A stretch of 64,000 nt of DNA from Clostridiaceae bacterium BRH_c20a (lineage in GTDB: Bacteria > Bacillota > Peptococcia > Peptococcales > BICA1-8). Positions 3,294-64,000 of the stretch are shown here, one piece after another. The DNA is taken from contig LADT01000042.1 in the NCBI GenBank assembly GCA_000961765.1, positions 40,907 through 104,906 on the forward strand. Reading direction: 5' to 3'. Positions within the stretch are counted from its first letter, which is position 1. Every line of letters begins with the position of its first letter. A model generated the notes under the pieces. It did not search any database and had not been told where the DNA came from. It saw only the letters and a list, made by a program, of their open reading frames with translations. The position numbers and the translations under genes were made by a program.

Positions 3294-3767
3294 CTAGACT
3301 TCCTCCCTTCTTAAAAGGGTTCGATAAAGATTGTTAATCACCTCAAAAAGCATTAAGGCACTACCAACCGGTATGGCAGCATAAGGTATTTTCATGGAAA
3401 TCCTCATTGCCGGCGATAACTGGCGGGATACAAAATCCGCCATATTGTACCCTTTCCAAACAAATATCGCCAAAATGCTGCAGAGCAATAAGCTTATTAC
3501 AATACTAACTACCTTCTGTAAACCTTTAGGCATCATACTTGTAAAAAAGTCAATTCCTAGATGATTTCCTGAACGAAATGCCATTGCAGCTCCCAAAAAA
3601 GTCAGCCATACTGCTAAATACCGTGCCAGTTCTTCTGTCCATGCCGGAGGGTTTTGAAATATATAACGACCTATTACTTGTAGGAAAGTTACGCAAACCA
3701 GTACTATTAATATTAGTATAGTAGTAAAGTCTACACTTTTATCCAATATACGTTTTACTTTACCCAT
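3294..3767 (-). CDS. TRAP transporter small permease subunit (DctQ family), system 1
   Basis: About 157 aa with 4 TM. Start trimmed to the internal ATG (MGKVKRILDK) because it has an AAAGGGGGG RBS. Contiguous with DctM. Confidence 0.8.
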   Translation of the reverse strand: MGKVKRILDKSVDFTTILILIVLVCVTFLQVIGRYIFQNPPAWTEELARYLAVWLTFLGAAMAFRSGNHLGIDFFTSMMPKGLQKVVSIVISLLLCSILAIFVWKGYNMADFVSRQLSPAMRISMKIPYAAIPVGSALMLFEVINNLYRTLLRREEV

Positions 3768-49575: not shown

Positions 49576-50148
49576 TTATTCTCTGCTGCCAGGTTTATAG
49601 ATGGGTATTCCTTGTTTGCATAAGGGGCAATCATTAGGGTCATAATTATTCATACTTATTGTTACCAAGGAGAAATACGGAACTGTCAGTTTAGCCAAAC
49701 CATTACTACGGTCAACTATAGAGCCTACAGCTAAAACTTCACCTCCCAATCCTTCCACTAAATCAATAACTTCCTGAGAGGAAAGTCCTGTTGTGATGAC
49801 ATCCTCGACCACTAAAACCTTTTGACCAGGTTTAATACTAAACATTCTTCTTAGCTGAGCTTTCCCCTCCACTTTTTCAGTGAAAATACCGGGGACCCCC
49901 AAATAACGAGCAACTTCATAAGCGACTATGATGCCTCCCATGGCAGGGCCAATGACGATATCCGGTTTATCTTGGCAAAAGTGCTCGGCAAGGGTAGTAC
50001 ACACCTTTTCAGATAAATCAGGTTCTTTTAATAGTTGTGCGCACTGTATATACACCTCACTATGTAAGCCGGAACTAAATTTGAAGTGCCCTTCTTTAAA
50101 AGCATCTACCTTTTTCAGCATTTCTAATACTTCATTGGAATCTAACAT
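49576..50148 (-). CDS. pyrE: Orotate phosphoribosyltransferase
   Basis: Start trimmed to MLDSNEVLEMLKK (RBS AGAGGAGA). Contains the PRPP loop VLVVEDVITTGLSS. Confidence 0.85.
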   Translation of the reverse strand: MLDSNEVLEMLKKVDAFKEGHFKFSSGLHSEVYIQCAQLLKEPDLSEKVCTTLAEHFCQDKPDIVIGPAMGGIIVAYEVARYLGVPGIFTEKVEGKAQLRRMFSIKPGQKVLVVEDVITTGLSSQEVIDLVEGLGGEVLAVGSIVDRSNGLAKLTVPYFSLVTISMNNYDPNDCPLCKQGIPIYKPGSRE

Positions 50149-50188
50149 AATTATCCATCTCCTCTTTGTAAATTTTTTATGCTTTAAC

Positions 50189-50296
50189 AAAAAAACCTTT
50201 TATCCAATCGCATAAGACTCCCTCTTCTATAAGCGGGAGATAAGGAATTAGGATAAGTCTCCCTAAGTTCAGGTGGAGTCAAAACTCCATCTGAAC
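50189..50296 (-). promoter_or_regulatory. Structured pyrF-pyrE spacer: a strong hairpin (50267-50296) plus a second composite stem ending in U7 (50189-50245); possible internal attenuator/terminator
   Basis: Minus-strand RNA reads GUUCAGAUGGAGUUUUGACUCCACCUGAAC, then CCUUAUCUCCC...GGGAGUCUUAUGCGAUUGGAUAAAAGG-UUUUUUU. Alternative GGGAG/CUCCC pairings are possible. Confidence 0.3.
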
Positions 50297-50306
50297 AAGT
50301 TCGGCT

Positions 50307-51017
50307 TTATATGGTCACCATTTCAGTGACAATGTCCTTGGCGGCCTGGTTAGGATTAATACTTTTCGTTATAGGTCGTCCTACTACAAGATAATCTGCA
50401 CCCATCTTTATTGCTTCCTGGGGTGTGGTAATCCTTTTTTGATCTTCGAGCAAGGTTCCCCGAGGCCGAACCCCCGGACAAACTGTCATAAATTCCTGAC
50501 CACATACTGTTTTTATTTGATTTGCTTCCTGGGGGGAACAAACTACACCATCCAGACCTGACTTTTGACAAAGCTGGGCTAGATTCATTACTGTTTCTGG
50601 GATAGTATATTTATAGCCTACCTGACTAAAGCTCTCTATATCAAAGCTTGTCAATACTGTAACACCGATTATCAAAGGAACCTTAAACCCGTTATTGAGA
50701 GCAGTATTTTTAACTGTTTCCACCGTAGTGGACATCATTACCCCCCCTCCGGAAGCATGAACATTAAACATATCAACACCTAAGCCCGCCGCCCACTTGG
50801 CAGCCTGGGTAACGGTATTGGGAATATCATGAAACTTTAGGTCCAGGAAAATCTTTTTTTCCTTAGTCTTTAAGTAATCTAGAATCTCCCCTCTGGTATT
50901 TAGAAATAATTCCAATCCTACTTTGTAAAAATTTGCTGCATCATCCAAAACATCAATAAGTTCTTTCGCCTTTGCTAGGCTTGGTACATCTAAGGCCACA
51001 ATTAATCTGTTTTCCAT
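50307..51017 (-). CDS. pyrF: Orotidine-5'-phosphate decarboxylase
   Basis: 236 aa. Contains LIVALDV, FLDLKFHDIPNTV and VVGRPI. Confidence 0.9.
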   Translation of the reverse strand: MENRLIVALDVPSLAKAKELIDVLDDAANFYKVGLELFLNTRGEILDYLKTKEKKIFLDLKFHDIPNTVTQAAKWAAGLGVDMFNVHASGGGVMMSTTVETVKNTALNNGFKVPLIIGVTVLTSFDIESFSQVGYKYTIPETVMNLAQLCQKSGLDGVVCSPQEANQIKTVCGQEFMTVCPGVRPRGTLLEDQKRITTPQEAIKMGADYLVVGRPITKSINPNQAAKDIVTEMVTI

Positions 51018-51075
51018 CTTCTCTCTCCTTTCTTTTGCTTAAGGGATATTTTGAATGTCAGTGTGATGACTAATG

Positions 51076-51113
51076 GGTAAGTCTGCACGACAGTGCTACA
51101 GTGCTACAGAAAA
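51076..51113 (-). repeat. 38-bp element TTTTCTGTAGCACTGTAGCACTGTCGTGCAGACTTACC (minus-strand reading); inverted partner of 54651-54688
   Basis: By direct comparison, 34/38 positions are identical to the plus-strand sequence at 54651-54688. Confidence 0.85.
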
Positions 51114-51185
51114 TGACAGGTTAAGGTTTCGCTTCGCTAGGCTGAGGTTAAGAAGAACCATAAGCAAGTCTGGACACTGAGCACT

Positions 51186-51260
51186 AATCACCAGTCACTA
51201 ATAGACCATAGACCATCGACTATAGACTATAGACTTTACTAGTCACCAGTCACCAGTCAC
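51186..51260. repeat. Short tandem repeats: (GACCATA/GACTATA)x5 at 51204-51238 and (AGTCACC)x3 at 51239-51260
   Basis: Read directly from the sequence. They lie immediately downstream of the carB stop. Confidence 0.8.
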
Positions 51261-51264
51261 TTTA

Positions 51265-54200
51265 CTAATACATCTGCAGCGGTTTGACTCTAATCATTGA
51301 TTCTAAAACCTGAACTATAGCCAAAACTAAATCTAGTGAGGTAAGACAGGGCACGTTGAACTCCACTGCCGCTCTCCGGATTCTAAACCCATCCCGGGCT
51401 GGAATTTTCCCTTTAGTCAAGGTATTGAGGACCAAATCTATTTCCCCTTTTTTAATCACATCAACCACATGGGGACTTCCTTCCTTAATTTTGTTCACTT
51501 CCCTGACCTCTAAGCCATGTTTTCGTAAAAGTTGGGCAGTTCCGCTGGTAGCAACTAAATTAAATCCTAAAGCCTTTAACCTTTTTATACTGGGTAAAGC
51601 CTCTTCTTTATCCTTATCAGCAATAGTTACCAGTACATTTCCCCTGCGGGGAATTACATATCCTGCAGCAATAAGAGCTTTATATAGAGCCTTATTAGGA
51701 TCTTTATCAAGTCCTAAAACCTCTCCAGTAGACTTCATTTCCGGACCTAAGGAGGTTTCTACATCGATAAGCTTACTAAAAGAAAACACCGGCATCTTTA
51801 CTGCTACAAGATCTTTAGCCTTAGCAAGTCCCGGGATATAATCTAATTCCCGTATAGTTTTGCCTAAAATAACCTCAGTTGCGATTTCCATCATAGGAAT
51901 TCCTGTTACTTTGCTTAAATATGGAACAGTCCGACTGGAGCGGGGATTGACCTCAATTACATAAACTTCATCTTCATGAATAACATATTGAATATTTAGT
52001 AACCCCTTAATTTTTAAAGCTATGGCCAGCTTTTCTGTCTTTTCTACCAGCTTATTTACTTCTTCTTCCTTTAAGGACATGGGAGGATATACAGCGGTAC
52101 TATCCCCAGAGTGGACACCAGCCCTTTCAATATGCTCCATTATTCCCGGAATCAAAACCTCGCTGCCATCACAGATGGCGTCTATTTCTACTTCCTTCCC
52201 AGTTAAATACCTATCAACCAGCACAGGATGGTCTGGGGAGATTTTAACAGCATTCGCCAAATACTCCTCTAGTTCCTCTAGTGAATAAACTATCTCCATA
52301 GCTCTTCCCCCCAAAACATAGGAGGGTCTGACTAAGACGGGAAAGCCTAATTGTTCTGCAATATTTTTAGCTTCCTTGACATTTCTGGCTGTTTTACCGG
52401 AAGGTCGGACAATGTTTAGCTCTTCTAAAATTGCTTCAAATTTTTCCCGATCTTCAGCCCCATCAATATTTTCCACTTGAGTGCCCAAAATCCTTATCCC
52501 TGCATCATGTAATGGTCTAGCCAGGTTGATGGCAGTCTGGCCGCCAAATTGGACAATTACACCCAGAGGCTTTTCTTTTTCTATAACATTTAACACGTCC
52601 TCTTTTGTTAAGGGTTCAAAATATAGCCTGTCAGATGTGTCAAAGTCTGTACTTACTGTTTCCGGATTGTTATTAATAACAATAGACTCATAGCCGGCAT
52701 TTCTTAGACCCCAGGCACAATGTACTGAGCAGTAGTCAAACTCTATGCCCTGTCCAATCCGGATGGGACCGCTCCCTAATACCACAACCTTTTTGTTGTT
52801 ATTTGTAGGTTCAACCTCATCTTTTTCATTGTAGCTGGAATAATAGTAGGGGGTAACTGCTTCAAATTCTCCTGCACAGGTATCAACCATTCTAAAAACT
52901 GCCCCAAGCTTTAATTGTTTTCTCAGCTCATATACCTCTTGCTCCGAAACACCCCAAGCCTCTGCAATCTGCAAATCACTAAAGCCTAATTCTTTAGCCT
53001 CTTTGAGTTTTTCACTATCAAATTTATTATTGGGCAGTATTGCTTTTTCCCAATTGACCAGCGTCGCAAATTTATTTAAAAAGAAGACATCAACATCTGT
53101 TAGTTTATGAATTTCTTTTATTAAGTAGCCTCTTCTTAAAGCTTCACCAAGGAGGAACAGTCTCTCATCATCAGGGTAAATGAGTCTTTCTTCAAGCTCC
53201 TCTTTACTGATGCTTTGGAATTGGGGATTTAGTAAACCCTTAACATCTAATTCTAAGGAACGGATTCCTTTCTGTAAAGCCATTTCAAAATTACGTCCTA
53301 TAGCCATAATTTCTCCGGTCGCCTTCATTTGTGAACCTAATTTTCTATTGCCTGATTGGAATTTATCAAAAGGCCAGCGGGGTATTTTGACAACTACATA
53401 ATCTAAAGCCGGCTCAAAAGCCGCTAAAGTTTTATCTGTTACACTATTAGGTATTTCATCTAAAAAATATCCTAAAGCAATCTTAGCCGCAATCTTGGCA
53501 ATTGGATAACCGGTTGCCTTAGAAGCAAGAGCACTAGATCTACTGACCCTGGGATTAACCTCTATCACAATATATTCCAGCTTATTAGGATTTAGGGCAA
53601 ACTGAACATTACAGCCTCCTTCAATCCCTAAAGCCCTAATTATTTTTATTGATGCAGTCCGTAATAGTTGATATTCTACATCCGTTAAGGTTTGACTAGG
53701 AGCTACCACAATACTGTCTCCTGTATGCACACCTACAGCATCAATGTTCTCCATATTACAAATAGTAATACAGGTATCATTGGCATCCCGCATTACTTCG
53801 TATTCTATTTCTTTCCAGCCCTTAACACTCTTTTCAATTAAGAGCTGGTTAATTGCACTATATTTTAAGCCTTTAGCTACAATCTCCTTAAGCTCAGCAT
53901 CAGTATGGGCAAAGCCACCCCCGGAGCCACCTAGGGTATAAGCAGGCCGGACAATAAGGGGATAGCCTATTTCCTCAGCCAAAAGTTTAGCTTCTTCATA
54001 ATTATTGGCAATACCACTCTCTGGTACCGGCTCATCTATTTCCTTTAATAAAGCTTTAAACATTTCCCTGTCTTCCGCTTTTCGGATAGCCTCCAAGGGC
54101 GTTCCTAAAAGTCTAACACCTGCTTTTTCCAAAATTCCGCTTTCCGCTAACTCTTGGGCCAGGTTAAGACCCACCTGTCCGCCTAGAGTGGCTAATAGCC

Positions 54201-54453
54201 CTTGAGGTCGTTCCGCATAAATAATTTCTTCTAAAAACTCTTTAGTTAAGGGCTCAATATATACACGGTCAGCCATGTTTTCATCGGTCATTATGGTGGC
54301 AGGATTGCTGTTTACTAATACTACCTCTATTCCTTCGTCCTTTAAGGCTCGGCAGGCCTGGGTACCAGCATAATCGAATTCCGCCGCCTGCCCGATTATT
54401 ATCGGACCAGAACCGATGACCATTACCTTTTTGATATCTTGACGTTTAGGCAT
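51265..54453 (-). CDS. carB: Carbamoyl-phosphate synthase large subunit
   Basis: 1062 aa from [30 protein letters not shown] (RBS GAAAGGAGA). Duplicated ATP-grasp halves and a C-terminal MGS-like domain. Confidence 0.95.
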
Positions 54454-54472
54454 GTGCTTTCTCCTTTCATGC

Positions 54473-54688
54473 TTAAGTGTGTAAGTGTTTAAGTGTTTAA
54501 GTTGAGATGTTGGGTCTGACAATGCTTTGGAGTGGACATTACGCGTCTGACAATACTACTGGGTAAATTTTTTGCGTCTGACAAATACTTTACGGGCATA
54601 CTAGTGCGTCTGACACAGGATTGGTTTGTGCAACATCCGGGTTTTAGTATTTTTCTGTAGCACTGTAGCACTGTCCTGCAGTCTAGCC
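54473..54688 (+). repeat. Repeat-filled carA-carB spacer: (TAAGTGTK)x4 at 54473-54506; four ~31-bp units with core GYGTCTGACA (cores at 54514, 54545, 54576, 54608); 38-bp CTGTAGCAC element at 54651-54688
   Basis: Read directly from the sequence. The spacer is 282 bp, where carA and carB are normally adjacent. Confidence 0.85.
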
Positions 54689-54735
54689 TGTGAGCCGTCA
54701 CACTAACATGCAGTTTATCCTATAAGCCTACACAC

Positions 54736-55812
54736 TTAAGTTTTATTTAGTTTGGCCAGAAATTCTTCAAACAAATATGCCGAATCTTGAGGACCTGGGG
54801 CTGCTTCGGGGTGATACTGTACACTGCCTACCGGCAGTCTTTTATGCCTTAATCCTTCGACCGTGCCATCATTTAGATTAATATGGGTTACTTCTACATC
54901 TTTATTCAGGCTTTCTGAGTCTACAGCAAAGCCATGATTTTGGGAGGTGATATATACCCGACCGGTTTGTAAATCTTTGACTGGATGGTTTCCACCTCGG
55001 TGACCAAATTTTAGTTTATAGGTTTTGCCGCCTAAGGCTAAGCCTAGCAGCTGGTGACCCATGCAAATACCAAACATAGGTATTTTTTGGGGTATTAACC
55101 TTTTAATGGTTTCTACAGCAAAAGCTACATCCTGAGGATCGCCCGGTCCGTTAGAGAGCAAAATCCCATTGGGTTTATGGGCTAATATCTCTTCTGCTTT
55201 TGTATCAGAAGGAACTACTATCACCGTACAGCCCTGTTCCTGTAATTTCCGTATTGAGTTGTTTTTAACACCAAAATCCATTACAACAACCCTTTTAGCC
55301 CCTCCCGGAAGGACATAGCTAAAAGGAGTGCTTACTTCCTTGACCAGCTGCTGTCCCGAGAGGGGTGGTATCCCTTCGGTCATACTTTTGAGCTCTTCTA
55401 TCCCCGTACCATCATTGGCAACTATGCCCGCCATTGTTCCGTGATACCGAAGATGCTTAGTAAGAGTCCGAGTATCTATGCCTTGTATTCCTACTAGTTT
55501 ATGTTCAACCAAAAACGCCTGAAAGCTTTGATTAGCCCGCCAACTACTAGGTTCCTCACAAGCTTCCTTAACTATCACACCCCGCCCGAAAACCTTGCGG
55601 CCTTCCCAGTCGGTAGTATTAGTTCCGTAGTTACCTATTAGGGGATAAGTAAAAGTAATGATTTCCCCAGCATAAGACGGGTCAGTAAGTATCTCTTGAT
55701 AGCCCACCATGCTTGTATTAAATACCACCTCGCCTTGAGTCCTGCCCCTCCAACCCAGGCCTTTTCCAGGGAAAACCGTACCATCTGCTAAGACAAGATA
55801 AGCCTTATTCAT
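54736..55812 (-). CDS. carA: Carbamoyl-phosphate synthase small (glutaminase) subunit
   Basis: Start trimmed to MNKAYLVLADGTVF. Contains the GATase triad Cys in FGICMGHQLL and the HPE tail (VQYHPEA). Confidence 0.95.
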   Translation of the reverse strand: MNKAYLVLADGTVFPGKGLGWRGRTQGEVVFNTSMVGYQEILTDPSYAGEIITFTYPLIGNYGTNTTDWEGRKVFGRGVIVKEACEEPSSWRANQSFQAFLVEHKLVGIQGIDTRTLTKHLRYHGTMAGIVANDGTGIEELKSMTEGIPPLSGQQLVKEVSTPFSYVLPGGAKRVVVMDFGVKNNSIRKLQEQGCTVIVVPSDTKAEEILAHKPNGILLSNGPGDPQDVAFAVETIKRLIPQKIPMFGICMGHQLLGLALGGKTYKLKFGHRGGNHPVKDLQTGRVYITSQNHGFAVDSESLNKDVEVTHINLNDGTVEGLRHKRLPVGSVQYHPEAAPGPQDSAYLFEEFLAKLNKT

Positions 55813-57094
55813 TGACTTCACCCTTTTCCATAACAATTTTTCCAGCTTTTATTGTTAGTATCGGCCACCCGGTAAGTTCCCAATCCTGAAAGGGAGTATT
55901 TTTGCCCAAGGAATAAAATGTTTCTCTTTTTACTTTTTGTGTAAGCTCTGGATCAATTACAGTGATATCAGCATTTTTTCCAGCTTGAACAGTGCCTCTA
56001 TCTATCCCCAATATTTTTGCCGGGGTTGTAGTAAATGTCTTTACCAGATCGAGCATACTAAGATGCCCCGCTAGATAAAGGTTTTGCCAGGCTAAAGGTA
56101 CAGCTGTTTCTAAGCCAGAGATACCATATGGTGCATAATCAAACTCTACATCTTTTTCCTCGCGAGCATGGGGCGCATGGTCAGTTGCAATGCAATCTAT
56201 AGTACCGTCCTGTAAACCCTGGATTAAGGCATAAACATCTTCCTCTGTTCTCAATGGAGGATTAACTTTAGTATTAGTGCAATAACCTTTTACAGCAGCA
56301 TCTGTCAAGGAAAAATGATGGGGTGTAACCTCAGCAGTCACCTTAACTCCTCTTTTTTTAGCGGCACGAATTAATTCTACTCCGCTTTTAGTTGACACAT
56401 GGGCAATATGAATTCGGCCTTTTGTTAGCTCCGCTAAGCGGATGTCCCGGTCGATAATAATATCCTCTACTTCTCTGGGAATACCAGCTAAGCCTAACTG
56501 AGTGCTGATTAACCCTTCATGCATTACGCCGGAGCCAGCTAGCTCCTCATCTTCACAGTGACTAATAATCAATAGATCCAGCATTTTTGCATAATCTAAT
56601 GCTCTACGCATAACACCACTATTCCTTACAGAATGTCCATCCTCAGATAAAGCTATAGCACCACACTCATGTAATATAGCAAACTCGGTCAACTCTTTCC
56701 CTTCCTGACCTTTAGTTATACTTGCTATTGGATAAACCTCTACTAGGTCATACCGCTTTGCTCGAGCTAGGATAAGCTCGATTACTCCTTCTGTGTCAGC
56801 AACCGGATTGGTATTGGGCATACAGGCTATTCCAGTAAAGCCTCCCCGAGCTGCAGCCCGGCAGCCACTTAGAATTGTTTCTTTATGCTCAAAGCCCGGT
56901 TCTCTAAGATGAACATGCATATCAATAAATCCGGGAGCAACTATTTTTTCATTAACATCTATTACCTTGATATCAGGAGAAGCTTTAATATCCTTTCCTA
57001 ACTCCACTACTTTACTATTTGCTATAAGAATATCCATTTTCTCACAGATGTTCTGACTGGGGTCAACCAACAACCCATTCTTAAGCAGTAACAT
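55805..57094 (-). CDS. pyrC: Dihydroorotase
   Basis: Start trimmed to MLLLKNGLLVDP (RBS GGGGGAGG). Contains FIDMHVHLREPG and ATDHAPH. Overlaps both the pyrB stop and the carA start. Confidence 0.9.
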   Translation of the reverse strand: MLLLKNGLLVDPSQNICEKMDILIANSKVVELGKDIKASPDIKVIDVNEKIVAPGFIDMHVHLREPGFEHKETILSGCRAAARGGFTGIACMPNTNPVADTEGVIELILARAKRYDLVEVYPIASITKGQEGKELTEFAILHECGAIALSEDGHSVRNSGVMRRALDYAKMLDLLIISHCEDEELAGSGVMHEGLISTQLGLAGIPREVEDIIIDRDIRLAELTKGRIHIAHVSTKSGVELIRAAKKRGVKVTAEVTPHHFSLTDAAVKGYCTNTKVNPPLRTEEDVYALIQGLQDGTIDCIATDHAPHAREEKDVEFDYAPYGISGLETAVPLAWQNLYLAGHLSMLDLVKTFTTTPAKILGIDRGTVQAGKNADITVIDPELTQKVKRETFYSLGKNTPFQDWELTGWPILTIKAGKIVMEKGEVNE

Positions 57095-58016
57095 TAAATT
57101 TACCTCCCCCCATGGCATATAATAACGCCATTCGTATTGCTACACCATTGGTCACCTGCTCTTCTATTACTGATTGAGAGGACTCAGCAACCTCAGCAGT
57201 TATTTCAATTCCCCGATTCATGGGACCGGGATGCATAACCAAAGCATTATCCTGGGCAAGCTTCAGCTTTTCTTGATTAAGTCCATAAAGCTTTGCGTAC
57301 TCTCTAGTGGAAGGAAACAGCCCTTTCTTCTGCCTTTCCAGTTGAATCCTAAGCACCATTACTACATCTGCTCCCTCTAGAGCTTTTTTCATATCCCAGG
57401 TAACCTTTACTCCCAGCTTTTCCACCTGTGCGGGTAAAAGGGTTGGTGGTGCACAAACCCAGACATCAGCACCAAAGGCATTTAAACCCAATATATTTGA
57501 ACGGGCAACCCTACTGTGCAAAACATCCCCAATTATAGCAATTTTTTTTCCGCTAAGTGTACCTAGGTGACCTAGCATAGTAAACATGTCCAAGAGTGCC
57601 TGTGTAGGATGCTCATGGGTTCCATCACCGGCATTGATCACTCGAGCGTTTATGGCTTTAGCCAAGATATGGTGGGCACCACTGGCAGGATGGCGCATTA
57701 TAACTACATCAGCTCCCATCCTCTCAATGGTTTTAGCTGTATCCCGCAGACTTTCACCCTTAGCGACACTTGAAGTGCCGGCACTGATATTAATTACATC
57801 GGCACCCATGTATTTGCCTGCTAGTTCAAAGGAGCTTCGAGTCCGAGTACTATTTTCATAAAAAAGATTAATGATTGCCTTTCCCCTAAGGGTAGGTACC
57901 TTTTTAATTTCCCGGTGAATAATTTCTTTCATGGATTTTGCATTAATGAATATTTCCTTCATTTCTTCAACAGATAAATCAGATAAGCTTATGAGGTCTT
58001 TACTTTTAATTCCCAT
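57081..58016 (-). CDS. pyrB: Aspartate carbamoyltransferase catalytic subunit
   Basis: 311 aa. Contains ENSTRTRSSFE, HEHPTQALLD and HPGPMNRG. Confidence 0.95.
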   Translation of the reverse strand: MGIKSKDLISLSDLSVEEMKEIFINAKSMKEIIHREIKKVPTLRGKAIINLFYENSTRTRSSFELAGKYMGADVINISAGTSSVAKGESLRDTAKTIERMGADVVIMRHPASGAHHILAKAINARVINAGDGTHEHPTQALLDMFTMLGHLGTLSGKKIAIIGDVLHSRVARSNILGLNAFGADVWVCAPPTLLPAQVEKLGVKVTWDMKKALEGADVVMVLRIQLERQKKGLFPSTREYAKLYGLNQEKLKLAQDNALVMHPGPMNRGIEITAEVAESSQSVIEEQVTNGVAIRMALLYAMGGGKFNVTA

Positions 58017-58046
58017 GGTTAAACCTCCTTTTAGTTGCTGGTGGCG

Positions 58047-58084
58047 CTAGTTGTTAGTGGCTAGTGGCTAGTGACTGGTTACTG
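58047..58084. repeat. Tandem heptamers CTAGTTG-TTAGTGG-CTAGTGG-CTAGTGA-CTGGTTA in the pyrB 5' leader
   Basis: Read directly from the sequence. The reverse complement is related to the (AGTCACC)n run at 51239-51260. Confidence 0.75.
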
Positions 58085-58211
58085 ATAATTAGTCTATGGT
58101 CTTCTTTTATCATGTGGTCTAGTGATTGTTATTAGTAACTAGTTTTTGGTAAAACACTAAAATATATTATGGATCGGGGGAACACCTCTTCACTTTGAGG
58201 AATTCCCCTAA

Positions 58212-58359
58212 TTAATAAAGCCGGGTCAGAGGACCCGGCAGGTAGACTAGTTATACTACAGCCAGCTTTACAGTAAAAACTGTAGTACTGTAGCACTGTA
58301 GCACTGCTAGAACTGAGCTACAGTTTCTCCTTGCCGGACTCTCAGGACCGATTTAAAGG
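58212..58359 (-). promoter_or_regulatory. PyrR-type transcription attenuator 1 (binding loop + terminator), proximal to pyrB
   Basis: Minus-strand RNA reads CCUUUAAAUCGGUCCUGAGAGUCCGGCAAGG, against the B. subtilis PyrR loop consensus UUUAA..RUCCAGAGAGGYU..AAGG. It is followed by the terminator GCCGGGUCCUCUGACCCGGC-UUUAUU. Confidence 0.7.
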
Positions 58360-58382
58360 GAATAATATTCAATTATATGCAC

Positions 58383-58430
58383 GGGGACACACCTCTTTTA
58401 TGGTTTATCATTGGGATGAGGAATGTCCCC
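58383..58430 (+). repeat. Copy of the GGGGACAC...GGAATGTCCCC hairpin element between the two attenuators
   Basis: GGGGACACACCT-N24-AGGAATGTCCCC, with the same termini as the 44019-44231 copies. Confidence 0.8.
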
Positions 58431-58460
58431 AAATAATTATGGGCGCGATAAACTTTATAT

Positions 58461-58610
58461 TAATAAAGCCGGGTCTTAAAAGACCCGGCAGGTAGACTAA
58501 TTATACTACAGTCAGCTTTACAGTAAAAACTGTAGAACTGTAGAACTGTAGAACTGCTAGAACTAACTACAGATTCTTCCTTGCCAGCCTCACAGGACCG
58601 AACTTAAAGG
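58461..58610 (-). promoter_or_regulatory. PyrR-type transcription attenuator 2 (distal; first after the promoter)
   Basis: Minus-strand RNA reads CCUUUAAGUUCGGUCCUGUGAGGCUGGCAAGG, followed by the terminator GCCGGGUCUUUUAAGACCCGGC-UUUAUU. By eye it is about 85-90% identical to attenuator 1. Confidence 0.7.
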
Positions 58611-58627
58611 ACTATTTATTTTTATTA

Positions 58628-58656
58628 ATTATAACCTTCCAAAATAAAATTGACAA
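58628..58656 (-). promoter_or_regulatory. Sigma-A-type promoter of the pyr operon (-35 TTGTCA, 17-nt spacer, -10 TATAAT)
   Basis: Minus-strand reading TTGTCAattttattttggaaggtTATAAT, lying about 15-20 nt upstream of the first PyrR loop. Confidence 0.6.
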
Positions 58657-58713
58657 GTTAAATTTACTAAAAATATGTTTACTGCTATAATTTTGGCTAG
58701 TGGGTAATTTTTG

Positions 58714-58963
58714 GAGTGACATATACTACAGGGTGAACATTATTGGGCTGACATTCTTCTGGGCGAATATTACGCGTCTGACATATACTTTTGGGTGATC
58801 ATTATGGGTCTGACATACTCCTACGCCATATTTTGCGTCTGACACAACCATTAACAGATATTCTATCAGATGCTAAACTAAACCCTTAAGCTATTGTCAG
58901 ACGCGAAAGACTGTCCCCATAGCAATGTCAGACCCATAAGTTAAACCCCTTAGTCTATCAGAC
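58714..58963. repeat. Head-to-head array of ~31-bp units with core G(C/G)GTCTGACA: five direct units (cores 58714, 58746, 58776, 58808, 58837) facing three inverted units (TGTCAGAC at 58895, 58926; TATCAGAC at 58956)
   Basis: Read directly from the sequence. The unit is the same as in the carA-carB spacer. Confidence 0.85.
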
Positions 58964-59029
58964 GTATTATCTTCACCCAGAAGTACATTTAACCAATGAA
59001 CTAGACCCATTAGCAAAAAGGAGGACAAA

Positions 59030-59674
59030 ATGAGGAAAATCAAAGGAATACTATTTGACCTAGACGGTACTTTAATCAATACCAACGAGCTAATAATTGA
59101 AACCTTCCAATACACTTATAAAAATATTCTAAACCTAGATATCCCCCGTGAGGAAATTGTCCAGTATTTTGGTGAACCCCTTATTGATACCCTTGCCAAA
59201 TACGGTCCTGACAAGGTTGAACTATTGCTAAAAACCTACCGTGATTATAACTTCCAGAGACATGATGAAGTAACTACCATTTTTCCCGGTGTCAAAGATA
59301 CAGTCATTACCCTAAAAAATCAAGGCTATCAATTGGCAGTTGTAACCTCAAAAAAAAATATTGGAGCCCGCAAGGGCTTAGATCTATTTGGGTTAACCCC
59401 ATATATTGATTTTTTTGTAGGATATGATGACACAGATAAACATAAGCCCAATCCTGACCCTGCTCTAAAAGCTTTATCTGGCTTAAAATTAACACCCCAG
59501 GAAGCACTCATGATTGGAGACAGCCCTTATGATATCTTATGTGGTAAAAATGCTGGGACCCATACTGCTGTAGTTAAATATAGCGAGCATTCCTTGGAAA
59601 AACTAATGGAATTAAAACCTGATTATGTATTAAATCATTTGGCAGATTTACTCCAAATACTAAATCGTCCGTGA
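59030..59674 (+). CDS. HAD-IA family phosphatase (PpaX / phosphoglycolate-phosphatase-like)
   Basis: 214 aa. Contains ILFDLDGTLINT, VVTSK and MIGDSPYDILCG. RBS AAAGGAGGA. This is the only convincing plus-strand gene in the window. Confidence 0.8.
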   Translation: MRKIKGILFDLDGTLINTNELIIETFQYTYKNILNLDIPREEIVQYFGEPLIDTLAKYGPDKVELLLKTYRDYNFQRHDEVTTIFPGVKDTVITLKNQGYQLAVVTSKKNIGARKGLDLFGLTPYIDFFVGYDDTDKHKPNPDPALKALSGLKLTPQEALMIGDSPYDILCGKNAGTHTAVVKYSEHSLEKLMELKPDYVLNHLADLLQILNRP

Positions 59675-59736
59675 TCAGTGATCAGTGCTCCGTGTCCAGA
59701 TCACGGGGCGGCGTGGAAACCGCCCCCTACAATATA

Positions 59737-59779
59737 AAAGCCCTCCGCCAGTATATTGTGCAACTGGCGGAGGGCTTTT
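59737..59779. terminator. Bidirectional rho-independent terminator between the convergent HAD and ATPase genes
   Basis: AAAAGCCCTCCGCCAG-N12-CTGGCGGAGGGCTTTT. Confidence 0.8.
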
Positions 59780-59781
59780 AA

Positions 59782-62475
59782 TTATTTTTTGAAACTTCTT
59801 TTAAAGATTTTAGCAATTTCCACTATCACCAGTGGTGCAAGGCTTAAAAGCAGTACCATTAACAATTCTTGTGTTGTTAGTACAGCTGTTTCGAATATTC
59901 CCCTTAAGAAAGGAACATAGACTACAGCTAACTGAAGACCTGCCGAGAGTAGGAAAGCATACACTAATGCTCTATTAGTACCTATGCCCATTTTAAAGAG
60001 TGACTGGTCAAAGCTTCGGGCGTTAAAAGATTGCACTAATTGGGAGAAGGCCATAGTCATAAAAGCCATAGTATGAGCTTCTTCTATACTCTGTCCCCAC
60101 CGGAGACCCAGCCAATAGGCAAAAAAGGATAACAAACCAATTGCGAAACCTTGATAAAGAATAGCTCCACCCACACCACCTGCAAAAACTGTTTCCTTAG
60201 AACTTCGGGGCGGATTATTCATAACTCCTTTTTCCGGTGGCTCCAAGCCTAAAGCTAGAGCAGGCGGACCATCAGTAACCAGGTTCAGCCATAATATCTG
60301 AATGGGTGTCAACGGACTTCCATAACCCAAGAGAATAGCGGTAAAAATGGCAACAATTTCCCCAGTATTACACGATAACAGATAATGAATAGACTTTCTA
60401 ATATTAGAGTATATAGTTCTGCCTTCTTCAACTGCATTAACAATAGTTGCAAAGTTATCATCAAGAAGCACCATGTCAGCGGCTTCTTTAGCCACTTCTG
60501 TACCTGTAATCCCCATGGCAGCACCGATATCAGCCCTTTTTAAAGCGGGGGCATCGTTAACACCATCTCCAGTCATTGCAACAACATGACCATGGGCTTT
60601 CAATGCACCTACAATCCGCAGCTTATGCTCCGGAGAAACCCTTGCATAAACTGTTGTCTTAGTAACATGTTTTTTTAATTCTTCTTCATCCATTTTTTCT
60701 AGCTGTGAACCGGTAAGAACACCATCACCTTTCTGCCAGATATTCAGCTCTTTGGCAATAGCTAAAGCTGTATCCTGGTGGTCACCGGTAATCATTACAG
60801 TTTTAATACCCGCCTTACGACTTATTTCCACGGCATCTTTAACTTCATCCCGTGCTGGGTCCAAGATAGCAAAGAAACCAATAAAGATAAGTTTATCTTC
60901 TACTGTATCCGAGTTTGGCTTTTCAGGGACTTCCGGCCATTTGCGGAAAGCCAGAGCGAGAACCCGTTGCCCTTGGGAAGCAATACTAGAATTCACCTTT
61001 AAAATCTTATCAAGAACCTCTTTACTTAATGCCTTTACTCCATCTTTTGTAAGCATTTCGCTGCAACGGGATAAAAGAACATCAGGGGCTCCTTTGGTAA
61101 AAGAAATAATTTCACCGTCAATTTTATTGAAGGTAGTCATCATTTTCCGAGCTGAATCAAAGGGAATTTCTTCTAAACGAGGATACTTTTTATCTATTTC
61201 GTCTTTGGTAAGTCCCGCTTTACCGGCAGCTACCACTAAAGCACCTTCTGTGGGGTCACCTATTACTTCATAGGCTTTTTCTGTTTTTTCAACCCGGGCA
61301 TCACTATTTAGAACACCACCCCTGAGCATTAGTTCCAAATTTTTATCAGCTAAAGGTGATAATTTCCCGTCTTTTTGATCTAAAAATTCCCCTTCCGGTT
61401 GATAACCAGTTCCTGTTAATTTAATAAAATTCTCGTCCTGATAAATTTGTATAACTGTCATCTCATTTTTAGTAAGGGTACCTGTTTTATCAGAACAGAT
61501 ATAGGTTGCTACACCCAAGGTTTCTACTGCCGGCAGCTTTCTGATAATAGCATTACGACGGCTCATCCTGGTCACACCTAAAGCTAACACTATGGTAACA
61601 ACTGAAGGTAAACCTTCTGGAATAGCTGCTACTGCTAAGGCAATAGAGGTCATAAACATTTCTAGAATTTCTTCACCCCGCCATAAACCAGTTGCAAAGA
61701 CTACAGCCACAATAACTCCAGCGGCAATTCCCAGGATTTTACCTAAAGCTGCTAACTGACGCTGTAATGGTGTAGGGTCCGGAGGTGATTCTTGGAGCAT
61801 TTGGGCAATTTTACCTAATTCACTATTCATACCAGTACCGGTAACTATCATTTTCGCCCGACCACCGGTTACAGTAGTTCCTCGGAAAACCATATTTTTC
61901 CGGTCGCCAATAGAAACATCTTCACCTTGGATTACTTTTAACTCTTTTTCTACCGGTACCGATTCACCAGTTAGAGCAGCTTCATTCACCCTTAAGGATG
62001 CGGACTCAAACAATCGAGCATCAGCTGGGATGGAGTCACCAGCATCTAGTAGTACTATATCACCTGGAACTAGTTGATCGACCTCAACCTGAGTCACTTT
62101 ACCGTTTCGCAGTACCTTAACCATAGCCTTGGTCATTTCTTTTAGTGCCTTGAGAGCTTGTTCAGCTTTGTTTTCCTGAAATACACCTAAAGCAGCATTT
62201 AAAACAACTATAATAAGGATAACTATTGAATCTGCCACTTCGCCTAGTGCTCCAGATACAACTGCAGCAACAATTAGGATTAACACCAAGACTTCCTTGA
62301 GCTGGGCAATAAACATAGAAATTAGACTGCGGGGCGGTGGCTCTTTTAAAGCATTTGGACCGTAAGAATTTAACCGTTTATTAACTTCTTCGGTACTTAG
62401 CCCTTTTTCCAGGTCCCCATTTAATTCCTGGGTAACCTGGGTGACCTCCTGTGAATACCACTTTTTGTCCTTCAA
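59782..62475 (-). CDS. P-type ATPase, type IIA (SERCA/PMR-like Ca2+/Mn2+ transporter)
   Basis: 897 aa. Contains CSDKTGTLT, TGES, MITGD and MTGDGVNDAPALKRAD, with 10 TM. TTG start with a GGGAGG RBS. Confidence 0.9.
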   Translation of the reverse strand: MKDKKWYSQEVTQVTQELNGDLEKGLSTEEVNKRLNSYGPNALKEPPPRSLISMFIAQLKEVLVLILIVAAVVSGALGEVADSIVILIIVVLNAALGVFQENKAEQALKALKEMTKAMVKVLRNGKVTQVEVDQLVPGDIVLLDAGDSIPADARLFESASLRVNEAALTGESVPVEKELKVIQGEDVSIGDRKNMVFRGTTVTGGRAKMIVTGTGMNSELGKIAQMLQESPPDPTPLQRQLAALGKILGIAAGVIVAVVFATGLWRGEEILEMFMTSIALAVAAIPEGLPSVVTIVLALGVTRMSRRNAIIRKLPAVETLGVATYICSDKTGTLTKNEMTVIQIYQDENFIKLTGTGYQPEGEFLDQKDGKLSPLADKNLELMLRGGVLNSDARVEKTEKAYEVIGDPTEGALVVAAGKAGLTKDEIDKKYPRLEEIPFDSARKMMTTFNKIDGEIISFTKGAPDVLLSRCSEMLTKDGVKALSKEVLDKILKVNSSIASQGQRVLALAFRKWPEVPEKPNSDTVEDKLIFIGFFAILDPARDEVKDAVEISRKAGIKTVMITGDHQDTALAIAKELNIWQKGDGVLTGSQLEKMDEEELKKHVTKTTVYARVSPEHKLRIVGALKAHGHVVAMTGDGVNDAPALKRADIGAAMGITGTEVAKEAADMVLLDDNFATIVNAVEEGRTIYSNIRKSIHYLLSCNTGEIVAIFTAILLGYGSPLTPIQILWLNLVTDGPPALALGLEPPEKGVMNNPPRSSKETVFAGGVGGAILYQGFAIGLLSFFAYWLGLRWGQSIEEAHTMAFMTMAFSQLVQSFNARSFDQSLFKMGIGTNRALVYAFLLSAGLQLAVVYVPFLRGIFETAVLTTQELLMVLLLSLAPLVIVEIAKIFKRSFKK

Positions 62476-62719
62476 ATTAATACCTCCCTATTTATTTAAA
62501 GCAATTTATTCTCTAAACCTTAATTAATTACTGTCGACTAGCGACTAGCTATTAGTTATTATTCCAAAAATGTAGGCTTAGATTTATTTATTTGTCTTTG
62601 TTAGACAAAAAATTACTAGAAAAATTTACTTCTTCCTGTAAATAAGACATTAAGGGGACAATTAACTCAATAATCATTAACATTTCCATTTGAATTACTA
62701 TTAATCCTTTTATTCAGAT

Positions 62720-62862
62720 ATTAAAAAGACCTCTACCCTGATATTATTAATCAAGGTAAAGGTCTGGCTTTAGCAATATACTAAGGTAACACCGGGCTTT
62801 TTAGGGCCGAGAAATGTCGACGTTACCACCAAAGAACTGGCAGTTACTCCCCTTTACGGAGG
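62720..62862 (-). promoter_or_regulatory. yybP-ykoY-like (Mn2+) riboswitch with a terminator expression platform
   Basis: Minus-strand RNA reads GUAAAGGGGAGUAACUGCC...GUCGACAUUUCUCGGCCC...UUGCUAAAGCCAGACCUUUACC. The 5' AAAGGGGAGUA and 3' AGACCUUU form the hallmark P1/L1 elements. The 3' P1 strand can instead pair in the terminator AGACCUUUACCUUGAU...AUCAGGGUAGAGGUCU-UUUUU. Confidence 0.65.
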
Positions 62863-62974
62863 GTTATTTAATTTGCATATTTATTGTAAACTATGTTTTA
62901 AAAAACTGCAATAGCATTTGCATAATTGGTAAAAGTCGTTAATACGTCTATTTGTCAACTCACTTTTAGCGTTT

Positions 62975-63131
62975 CATCGTGACATCGTGTCGCCGTGTCA
63001 TCGATTAAAAGGCATCTGCTATTGGGTTGAGATATTGGGATGCATCTCATGCAAGTGGAGATTACTGGATGCATCTGCTTAAAGGTCTAGCTTAAGGGAT
63101 GCATCAAAAAGATTGGCATTCATCTGATGCC
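62975..63131 (+). repeat. Tandem octamers (CATCGTGA-CATCGTGT-CGCCGTGT-CATCGATT, 62975-63006), then a ~30-bp-period array with core GG(G)ATGCATCT (GCATC at 63012, 63042, 63071, 63101, and CATCT at 63121)
   Basis: Read directly from the sequence. It lies between the riboswitch promoter region and the stop of the M20D gene. Confidence 0.8.
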
Positions 63132-63166
63132 ATAACTATTAACTCGCCCACTGACTCACTTTGAGA

Positions 63167-64000
63167 CTAATTTAGTCGTTCTTCAACTATTGCGGCTAAT
63201 ATCTTCGCCCCATGGATCAGTGCTTCCAAATTAAATTTCATTTCGGGATGATGGAGACCTGGAGCTAAATCAGCACCTAGACCTATATAGGCTGTTTTAA
63301 TTTGTCCCTTGGTACTATAGTAGTGAAAATCCTCGCCACCGGGAGTAATAACGGGATCCATGGTTTCTCCTAAAACTTTTTGAATAGCTTTAGAGGTTAA
63401 ATCAATTAATCCCTGGTCATAACTCGCTCCCGGAACACCTCCTAGTACTGAAATCCGGGAAGAGGCTCCAAGAGCAGCAGCCCCATTTTCTACAGCACGC
63501 TGAACCCTTTTCTGCAGTTCCTCCATTGCTTCATTAGTTTGGGCTCTTAAATCAAAAACCATTTCTGCCCTATCAGGAATAATATTATTTGCCCCATTAT
63601 TTGCCAACAGTTTAGTGGTTTTTACAGAAAAAGGCACAGTAGGATTAAGTCTAATAGCATTAACTGCGTTGACAACTGCTGCCGCTGCATCAATAGCATT
63701 AATTCCCAAATGAGGTCTCGCACCATGAGCTGGTAAACCTTTAATTTCGGCCCACATAATATAAGAAGACCCATGACATAATGCAGGCGTAGCTTGGCCA
63801 AGCTTACCCTCTTGGATAGGCCTCAGGTGTATCCCAAACATTTCCTCAACATCAGCCAAAATACCACTTTTTAGCATTGCCTCAGCCCCACCAAGGGCTT
63901 CTTCGGCTGGCTGAAACAATATTTTTAAGGTCCCCCTTTTGATTCTCCTTTTAGCCCATACTAAAGCTGCCATCAATACCATAGTACTGTTAGCATCGTG
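63167..64000 (-). CDS. M20D-family amidohydrolase (N-acyl-amino-acid amidohydrolase / hippurate-hydrolase-like), C-terminal 277 codons (the 5' end lies right of the window)
   Basis: The frame is open to position 64000 (...HDANSTMVLMAALVW...). Contains LFQPAEEALGGA and the dimerisation-domain pattern GLPAHGARPHLGINAI. Confidence 0.8.
   Translation of the reverse strand, partial: HDANSTMVLMAALVWAKRRIKRGTLKILFQPAEEALGGAEAMLKSGILADVEEMFGIHLRPIQEGKLGQATPALCHGSSYIMWAEIKGLPAHGARPHLGINAIDAAAAVVNAVNAIRLNPTVPFSVKTTKLLANNGANNIIPDRAEMVFDLRAQTNEAMEELQKRVQRAVENGAAALGASSRISVLGGVPGASYDQGLIDLTSKAIQKVLGETMDPVITPGGEDFHYYSTKGQIKTAYIGLGADLAPGLHHPEMKFNLEALIHGAKILAAIVEERLN

Follow-up and report, generated by a model that had tools for sequence, protein, structure and literature searches.

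The two arrays of regularly spaced short repeats located in the pyr region of Clostridiaceae bacterium BRH_c20a are best read as members of an apparently undescribed, lineage-specific family of composite interspersed repeats. The stretch of DNA analyzed here (64,000 nucleotides, referred to below as the window) carries one of these arrays between carA and carB and the other between pyrB and the gene of a HAD-family hydrolase. The anatomy of the elements, their dispersal, their restriction to intergenic DNA, the rule followed by the polarity of their arms, the turnover of their units and the polymorphism of their insertions are observed directly, and a putative mechanism of mobility, a putative trans-acting factor and possible effects on expression are proposed on that basis. 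A brief search of the literature found no description of the motif or of repeats in Peptococcaceae.

Two arrays of phased units in the window

The 8-mer GTCTGACA occurs in nine exact copies in the window, and all nine lie within the two arrays, where the period is 29–32 bp. The longer motif GYGTCTGACA, with up to one mismatch, has ten matches in the window against 2.5 ± 1.5 in shuffled sequences (none of 100 shuffles reached ten), and the arrays described in the initial annotation are real and non-random. At the core positions the heads read GCGTCTGACA or GGGTCTGACA. The direct cores of the HAD-side array are at 58714 (degenerate), 58746, 58776, 58808 and 58837 (spacings of 32/30/32/29 bp), and the inverted ones at 58895, 58926 and 58956 (31/30 bp), while those of the carA–carB array are found at 54514, 54545, 54576 and 54608 (31/31/32 bp); the positions and spacings first reported for both sites were reproduced. 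Tandem Repeats Finder (TRF) detects periods of 32 and 62 bp at 58717–58844.

When a 31-nt position matrix derived from 240 related units is applied to the window, it recognizes 12 units and essentially nothing else, four of them between carA and carB and the other eight (four direct and four inverted) near the HAD gene (Table 1). The two sets near HAD do face each other, as had been claimed, and their limits require correction: the right arm extends to 58986 instead of 58963 (23 bp more), the centre occupies 58845–58863, and the carA–carB array begins at 54491. The right arm may include an additional decayed unit, up to ~59017, which would adjoin the HAD ribosome-binding site. The units of the carA–carB array appear as their complement, UGUCAGACGC, in the pyr transcript (− strand).

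Table 1. Coordinates of repeat features and promoter-like sites in the window.
Feature	Position	Strand	Description
carB-side end of carA–carB insert	54455–54502	+	Terminal inverted repeat CTTAAGTGTGTAAG extended by tandem TTAAGTGT copies
carA–carB array	54491–54615	+	Four direct units; matrix scores 17.2, 32.3, 39.9, 33.1
Remainder of carA–carB insert	54616–54735	+	Short centre, CTGTAGCA octamer run, ~two second-family units (GTGTGACGGCTCACAGG...)
Back-to-back promoter-like sites	58628–58691	both	Consensus scan only; region conserved in BICA1-8
pyr promoter-like site	58628–58656	−	TTGTCA-17-TATAAT; consensus scan
HAD promoter-like site	58663–58691	+	TTTACT-17-TATAAT with TG; consensus scan
Left arm of paired element	58692–58844	+	One degenerate unit, then four 31-nt units
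Decayed left-arm unit	58692–58722	+	Core GGAGTGACA; from the sequence
Left-arm units	58723–58753, 58753–58783, 58785–58815, 58814–58844	+	Matrix scores 25.0, 35.4, 36.3, 12.2
Centre of paired element	58845–58863	.	CAACCATTAACAGATATTC, ~19 nt; opens with CAAsC extension of innermost unit
Right arm of paired element	58864–58986	−	Four inverted units
Right-arm units	58864–58894 (degenerate, innermost), 58895–58925, 58926–58956, 58956–58986	−	Matrix scores 7.5, 34.3, 31.4, 30.5
Related array	62990–63142	+	Core a perfect palindrome, GATGCATC; similar backbone, TATTGGGTTGAGATATTGG; period ~29–31 bp

Gene context and leader regions

The Pfam annotation, which covered nine neighbouring ORFs (window 49576–63982), assigns the − strand genes to pyrB, pyrC, carA, carB, pyrF and pyrE, and the + strand genes to a HAD-family hydrolase (59030–59674) and, beyond it, a P-type ATPase. 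No rep, par or cas gene was found among these nine ORFs, nor among the translated flanking ORFs of five related loci, which read as housekeeping genes.

Two PyrR attenuators in tandem (58459–58614 and 58211–58363), each provided with a terminator hairpin (58468–58489 and 58220–58239, respectively), lie on the − strand in the 1-kb gap between pyrB and HAD. Their scores (49.7 and 43.4 bits) lie below the Rfam threshold of 54, probably due to runs of the octamer CTGTAGCA/CTGTAGAA that are inserted within the sites; other short repeats (TAGTGGC) occupy that place in relatives. The pyr leader as a whole (58160–58620, − strand) is built from two tandem 250-bp repeats, each containing one PyrR-binding site and its terminator. 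At the gathering threshold, Rfam gives no matches over the whole window, and a permissive search of both array regions returned only the two sub-threshold PyrR sites of the pyr leader and noise. The gap that separates HAD from the convergent ATPase gene contains a perfect 18-bp inverted repeat (TAAAAGCCCTCCGCCAGT / ACTGGCGGAGGGCTTTTA, 59735–59780), which is probably a bidirectional terminator.

If the two promoter-like sites listed in Table 1 are real, the paired arrays lie inside the ~330-nt 5′ leader of HAD and outside the pyr transcript. Because the arms are inverted with respect to each other, this leader is predicted to fold into a long imperfect hairpin (−106.5 kcal/mol, z = −6.35), and such a hairpin would be the likely local effect of the element. 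The likely local effect at the other site would be an untranslated spacer of 281 nt separating carA from carB.

Anatomy of the carA–carB insert

The array between carA and carB, apparently one-sided, is a hybrid of two unit families, in which the arm on the carA side consists of about two GACGGCT-family units plus octamers, and the arm on the carB side of four GTCTGACA units. The insert ends toward carA in the inverted terminal repeat CTTACACACTTAAG, inside which the carA stop codon is found, and toward carB just upstream of the ribosome-binding site of that gene (− strand); the two ends pair with each other in the predicted RNA fold. The element folds no better than shuffled sequences do (z = −1.4). 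Its modules recur in related genomes, and two inverted copies of a 77-nt module (79% complementary, at 51037–51113 and 54651–54727), composed of GTGTGACGGCT-type units and CAGTGCTA octamers, bracket carB.

A dispersed family of 31-nt units

A scan of one genome per species, in which three phased cores were searched for, located the same units in the low-GC genomes of Peptococcaceae bacterium BICA1-8, Clostridia DJKA51 and Bacillota Betzabe_MAG005. The first of these is a close relative, with 89% nucleotide identity over the ATPase region and synteny at the HAD gene. In the metagenome Ga0209643, 17 large contigs of a single population, totalling 1.9 Mb, carry at least 24 loci. The 37 related loci gathered (359 kb) hold 279 units in approximately 50 arrays; they were picked for containing arrays, and the copy number per genome (on the order of 100) is an extrapolation. 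Viral contigs contained nothing related, only 12 chance-level matches, and the sole locus with several of them is a 15-nt coding repeat. The ERZ1034... loci share the core and were rejected as members of the family, being one unrelated single-locus array.

The consensus of 240 units, ATACTTTTGGGTCAAGCTTTTGCGTCTGACA, describes a non-palindromic unit of 31 nt in which the last 8–10 nt, the core GCGTCTGACA, are almost invariant and are set in a loose, T-rich backbone whose landmarks are TACT, GGG and a T six bases before the core. The remaining 21 nt are only ~53% identical between units. This agrees with the conserved head and semi-conserved TACT...GGG...T-rich tail of the initial description, as does the period of about three helical turns: of the 195 distances between adjacent units, 183 are 30, 31 or 32 bp, and the mean spacing is 31.26 bp.

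In a complete element, an arm of direct units and an arm of inverted units flank a short and variable centre, toward which the ACA ends point. All 24 paired elements are convergent, with the direct arm first and the inverted arm second, and none is divergent; their arms have 1–13 units and their centres 18–159 nt, and the innermost units lengthen the palindrome (GTCTGACACAAGC ... GCTTGTGTCAGAC in related loci). There are also 27 one-sided arrays, and half elements as well as hybrids with other unit families exist.

Most of the family resides between genes, with 260 of the 279 units outside long ORFs, though ORFs make up 81% of the bases. The elements occupy gaps that open with a stop codon and close with the ribosome-binding site of the following gene, in all contexts of gene orientation and often inside housekeeping operons (for example hisD-hisB, glmM-acpS, cdaR-glmM, pcrA-ligA, from a T-box terminator to alaS, and upstream of dapF), which implies that they are co-transcribed with housekeeping genes. 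The pcrA helicase gene of Clostridia bacterium DJKA51 (L088, 3–2924) appears to have an intein-like insertion (CLLEG...VVHNS) in its helicase domain, seen by eye.

At least two further families of ~31-nt units are present in genomes of the clade, one with the core GTCGGCAT/GACGGCT and the other with the palindromic core GATGCATC; the array of the latter type in the window has BLAST matches in loci L143, L053 and L020. The same genomes contain octamer runs (CAGTGCTA/CTGTAGCA, TTAAGTGT), heptamer runs (ATAGACT, AGTCACC, GCTAGTG) and the hairpin module GGTTAAGGTTTCGC. Short runs of 7–8-nt tandem repeats occupy many intergenic gaps of the window (51090–51260, 54473–54502, 54655–54674, 58046–58073, 58279–58315, 58528–58564, 59671–59687 and 62535–62549), with the sequences ACAGTGCT, ATAGACT, AGTCACC, TTAAGTGT, CTGTAGCA, GCTAGTG, GTGATCA and CGACTAG, and related genomes contain these heptamers and octamers too, in many cases immediately before a ribosome-binding site.

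A separate element with 31-bp units (GGGGTCAGGTCTGACAWTCGGACA) was found in the high-GC genomes of ‘Pseudomonadota bin05’ (L029 4520–4785, L063 681–960, L077, L078, L083, L086 and L105) and Massilia eurypsychrophila (L028, L041, L081, L089 and L095). Each complete ‘bin05’ copy has three direct and three inverted units, and those of Massilia vary (2+3 in L028, 3+5 in L081). The arms are nearly identical between copies, the centres (65–87 nt) are mostly unrelated, and the outer ends show short ‘stutter’ duplications, in which the last few bases are repeated together with 7–10 bp of flank. Polarity and period match those of the family in the window; as nothing aligns beyond the 8-mer used in the search, homology was rejected and the element is treated as a separate family.

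Growth, turnover and presence among relatives

Arrays bear the marks of growth by duplication. Four consecutive units are identical in locus L165, higher-order repeats of 95 bp are 98% identical in L163 and 93% in L194, and units of the same arm resemble each other more than units of different elements do (0.58–0.63 vs 0.535; adjacent units against units of other elements, Mann–Whitney p = 9e-4). At the HAD site, BICA1-8 has one left unit fewer and two right units more than the window, and the three inner left units are nearly identical in both while the others cannot be aligned. The composition of the element also differs between genomes at glmM-acpS and at the site upstream of dapF.

Orthologous pyr loci, gathered by means of carA homologues, reveal how variable a single site can be. 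The carA–carB spacer of the window (281 bp) contains about two second-family units followed by four units of the GTCTGACA family of 31-nt units (F1). The spacer of L212, whose carA is 92% identical to that of the window, measures 331 bp and carries ten convergent units, five per arm, that belong to another family (core GTCGGCAT/ATGCCGAC), and that of L208 (87%) measures 217 bp and carries two F1 units. Sites without an element are found in L210 (carA 84% identical, spacer of 34 bp), L214 (81%, 31 bp) and L215 (78%, 1 bp), and a single decayed unit lies in the 76-bp spacer of L211 (77%). In the window and in L208, the insert is delimited by the inverted repeat CTTAAGTGTGTAAG, with the carA stop codon inside this repeat. 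The L212 element (3322–3654) is made of 32-nt units, five direct and five inverted, around an AT-rich centre, and the protein identity of this relative is 92–95%; the family that forms the arms has thus been exchanged within a short evolutionary distance. Filled and empty carA–carB sites were compared in search of a target-site duplication, and none is visible between flanks that are too diverged.

The array of the HAD leader is absent from L210 and L211, both of which keep the two PyrR attenuators. Given that arrays are missing in relatives that retain the pyr operon and its attenuators, neither of them is a conserved control element of these genes.

Comparison with known repeat classes

The initial annotation allowed that the arrays might be decayed copies of a known repeat family; they do belong to a dispersed family, and no named family was found that includes them. 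The closest matches are the composite small interspersed repeats, namely BOX, STAR, enterobacterial BIME/REP and MIRU. As in repeats of the BOX/BIME/NIME type, modules (the 31-nt unit, the second unit family, octamer and heptamer runs, and the hairpin module) recur in various arrangements.

The BOX elements of Streptococcus pneumoniae, boxA-boxB(n)-boxC, resemble the present family in being composite, intergenic and interspersed, with an internal tandem module of variable copy number, in being co-transcribed with their neighbours and capable of extensive secondary structure, and in being confined to a narrow lineage with slow gain and loss between strains (PMC3049150). The L165 copy lies behind a T-box leader, a position also described for a BOX element (PMC3049150). 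The sequences, however, are unrelated, the 31-nt family has no distinct terminal A and C modules, since both of its arms consist of one unit in opposite orientations, and no IS with matching ends was found for it in the family loci.

STAR of Staphylococcus aureus shares with the family a short conserved core of direct repeats between looser recurring sequence, an intergenic location, loci that expand and contract, and locations that differ between species (PMC3532100). Its 14-bp core is GC-rich, its spacers are of at least 40 bp and it has no convergent two-arm plan (PMC3532100), in contrast to the tight period of 30–32 bp and the strict polarity of pairs, 24 to 0, in the 31-nt family.

The presence of CGTC in the core led to a comparison with REP and CGTC-tagged REP sequences (PMC3733652). 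Both are mosaics of modules in transcribed intergenic regions with a predominantly head-to-head arrangement, and both have CGTC in the core and units of ~30 nt (PMC2817692, PMC3733652). REP units, nevertheless, are stem-loops with an unpaired tag (PMC2817692, PMC3733652), and the 31-nt unit lacks the imperfect palindrome, with a stem of 5–13 bp, that such a tag (GTAG or CGTC) accompanies. Taken singly, the units do not fold (energies of 0 to −1.2 kcal/mol, not better than those of shuffled sequences), and identity with REP was rejected. The units of BIMEs alternate in orientation, whereas those of the 31-nt family are direct within each arm. GTAG families are associated with a RAYT (IS200/IS605-like) gene that has the repeats on either side; in the ~400 kb of sampled loci no RAYT-like gene was seen and no multi-copy ORFs were present.

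Mycobacterial interspersed repetitive units (MIRUs) are repeats of 40–100 bp in one orientation relative to transcription, with small ORFs for translational coupling. Like them, the 31-nt family consists of direct tandem repeats of variable number in operon spacers, and the carA stop codon lies inside the carA–carB insert just as a MIRU starts at or overlaps the upstream stop codon; units of 31–32 nt, on the other hand, cannot maintain a reading frame.

Features of MITEs are also present, including inverted arms of one unit family, element lengths of ~150–650 bp (the class size being under ~600 bp), the outer inverted repeat CTTAAGTGTGTAAG of the carA–carB insert, and presence/absence polymorphism at orthologous sites together with many copies. 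No autonomous partner with a transposase and the same ends was found in the sampled loci (~400 kb).

The unit core resembles the DNA uptake sequence of Neisseria, GCCGTCTGAA. Uptake sequences are short motifs in excess across a whole genome, genes included, and such a function was rejected because the core is not enriched outside the arrays, where its 8-mer occurs at chance level (4 observed vs 4.6 expected in 395 kb).

CRISPR arrays consist of near-identical repeats of 23–47 nt separated by unique spacers of similar length, with a leader and cas genes nearby. The whole period of the arrays described here is 31 nt; invariance is limited to ~10 nt and the other positions conform to a common consensus, hence there are no unique spacers, and the view that they are not CRISPR, already expressed in the initial annotation, was upheld. 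The single match to a CRISPR-repeat model (RF01344, 17 bits vs a threshold of 35, E = 4.7) lies outside the arrays, at 58295–58324.

An intergenic or operon-internal location, modularity, a variable number of units and a narrow host range are therefore what the family has in common with known composite repeats, and the tight 30–32-bp period, the non-palindromic unit, the strictly convergent arms and the variation of cores on a shared scaffold are what sets it apart.

Constraint on the units and possible explanations

Single units do not form structures: six F1 units, folded as single-stranded DNA, gave 0 to −1.2 kcal/mol with z between −0.15 and +1.4, and no two segments within the consensus are complementary to each other. 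When opposite arms are compared at mirror positions, their units show no greater complementarity than units taken at random from the family (0.528 vs 0.535 over 21 backbone positions), which indicates that the pairing of the arms is a by-product of their common consensus and is not maintained. Selection on a hairpin was rejected for this reason, and also because the carA–carB element is not unusually stable. The persistence of a near-invariant core in a drifting backbone points instead to recognition of the unit itself. The core is intact in most units despite a backbone that cannot be aligned, even at orthologous sites in different genera, and the most economical explanation of this invariance would be a trans-acting factor that recognizes it, be it the transposase or recombinase of a mobile element or a DNA-binding protein of the host. 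Core retention is not expected of decaying junk, and selection for the binding of a host factor fits at least as well. A search of ~400 kb of family loci for a transposase or any other multi-copy ORF found none; a linked transposase was rejected after the 421 ORFs of these loci, compared all against all, yielded orthologues only. Resemblances of each unit to a sigma-70 promoter (CTGACA / CATTAT, with two 9-of-12 matches) and to a sigma-54-like GG-N10-GC site are weak at the level of consensus and were dropped.

With moderate probability, the elements are selfish or near-neutral DNA, spreading from one intergenic site to another, growing by tandem duplication and incidentally affecting RNA structure in the HAD leader and the carA–carB spacer. 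Spread would take place by transposition or ectopic recombination, and the conserved core would be the part recognized by the putative trans-acting factor. Copies are inherited vertically for a time and change fast, as whole units are gained, lost or replaced (by tandem and higher-order duplication), and a given site may be occupied in one species and not in another.

The constraint on the core also agrees with a second proposal, considered rather unlikely, according to which the arrays are a binding platform for a sequence-specific DNA-binding protein (nucleoid-associated, a global regulator or a domesticated transposase). This protein would load cooperatively on the GCGTCTGACA core, on one helix face every three turns, and the two arms would correspond to opposed filaments; the proposal extends the idea of the initial annotation to the genome as a whole. 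Apart from the difference between the core and the other 21 nt, the tight spread around the mean period of 31.3 bp would suit such loading, but spacings of 30, 31 and 32 bp are equally tolerated and the phase across the centre (18–159 nt) is not fixed. The orientation of solo arrays is independent of transcription (11 sense vs 7 antisense), arm complementarity is not kept, so that it is the sequence of the unit and not the hairpin that seems constrained, and the sister arrays with cores GATGCATC and GTCGGCAT, which have a similar period and GGGT, resemble sites for paralogous binders. The gain, loss and swapping for another family of arrays at one site among close relatives, by contrast, are unlike the behaviour of conserved operators or organizing sites, and no candidate protein is linked to the arrays.

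An effect at the level of RNA, in which convergent arms carried on one transcript would pair into long hairpins, either cleaved by RNase III or acting as a barrier to exonucleases, and would set the relative stability and translation of neighbouring cistrons with the C-rich arm always beside the downstream ribosome-binding site, is improbable. The location of the elements between stop codons and ribosome-binding sites, in operons and leaders, and the strong predicted hairpin of the HAD leader would suit such a role, and comparable effects are known for Correia, ERIC and BOX repeats (PMC3049150); the fold of the carA–carB element and the random level of complementarity between mirror units do not, arms drawn from different families, as in the hybrid elements, cannot form good pairing, and there is no Rfam match. 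As a consequence of the convergent rule, the arm next to the downstream start always reads UGUCAGACGC...ACCC in the mRNA, and 12 of 16 solo arrays obey the same rule (counted by eye from distances), yet solo arrays exist in both orientations relative to transcription.

There is a similarly small chance that the families constitute a modular ‘address’ system, in which paralogous factors, perhaps domesticated transposases or nucleases, would each recognize one core (GCGTCTGACA, GTCGGCAT or GATGCATC) and form polar filaments on intergenic arrays, meeting head-to-head at the centre. Such a system would actively make, remove and exchange units, and would at the same time shape operon expression or chromosome structure. 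If this were true, machinery of this kind would have a second instance in Oxalobacteraceae, in the form of their independent ‘3+3, 31-bp, GTCTGACA’ elements.

Plasmid- or phage-type iterons, a centromere-like (parS/parC) site or a degenerate CRISPR array, brought to mind by regularly spaced direct repeats in two opposed sets, as at some partition sites, are scarcely credible, being contradicted by the gene context of both arrays (pyrB, pyrC, carA, carB, pyrF, pyrE, the HAD hydrolase and the P-type ATPase, with no rep, par or cas gene among the nine ORFs scanned), by copy numbers of dozens of loci per genome, by viral contigs devoid of anything related and by units without unique spacers. Plasmid iterons and partition repeats likewise have direct units in phase, each with a conserved core, and these are sometimes divided into two opposed groups; iterons are found at one or few sites per replicon, where an AT-rich unwinding region and rep or par genes adjoin them, whereas the 31-nt family occupies dozens of chromosomal sites in housekeeping operons, with ~50 arrays in 37 related loci, and the arrays of the window are flanked by pyr, car and HAD genes. 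The local role as iteron, centromere or regulator of pyr/HAD that was initially implied is not supported, in view of the recurrence of the units at unrelated intergenic sites of related genomes, the lack of rep and par genes beside the arrays of the window and in the five related loci, and the absence of arrays from relatives that retain the pyr operon with its PyrR attenuators.

Significance

For the annotation of these genomes, the arrays are not to be taken as pyrimidine regulators, replication origins or CRISPR. They inflate intergenic spacers and break assemblies: the BICA1-8 contig ends in the repeated pyr leader beside the array, and in the unrelated high-GC ‘bin05’ genome several contigs break off within its own 3+3 arrays.

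The repeat family is apparently undescribed, and the clade that carries it consists of poorly studied, mostly uncultivated Peptococcaceae-like Bacillota. The simple decay of a mobile element leaves four of its properties unexplained, namely the invariance of the core in a drifting backbone, the strict convergent polarity without complementarity of the arms, the existence of several cores that share a period of ~31 bp and GGGT (one of them also much of the backbone), and the exchange of unit families at a single site in genomes with 92–95% protein identity. If a cognate factor exists, the genomes of this clade would be a good place in which to learn how such repeats arise and persist, a question that STAR and REPs of the CGTC type also raise.
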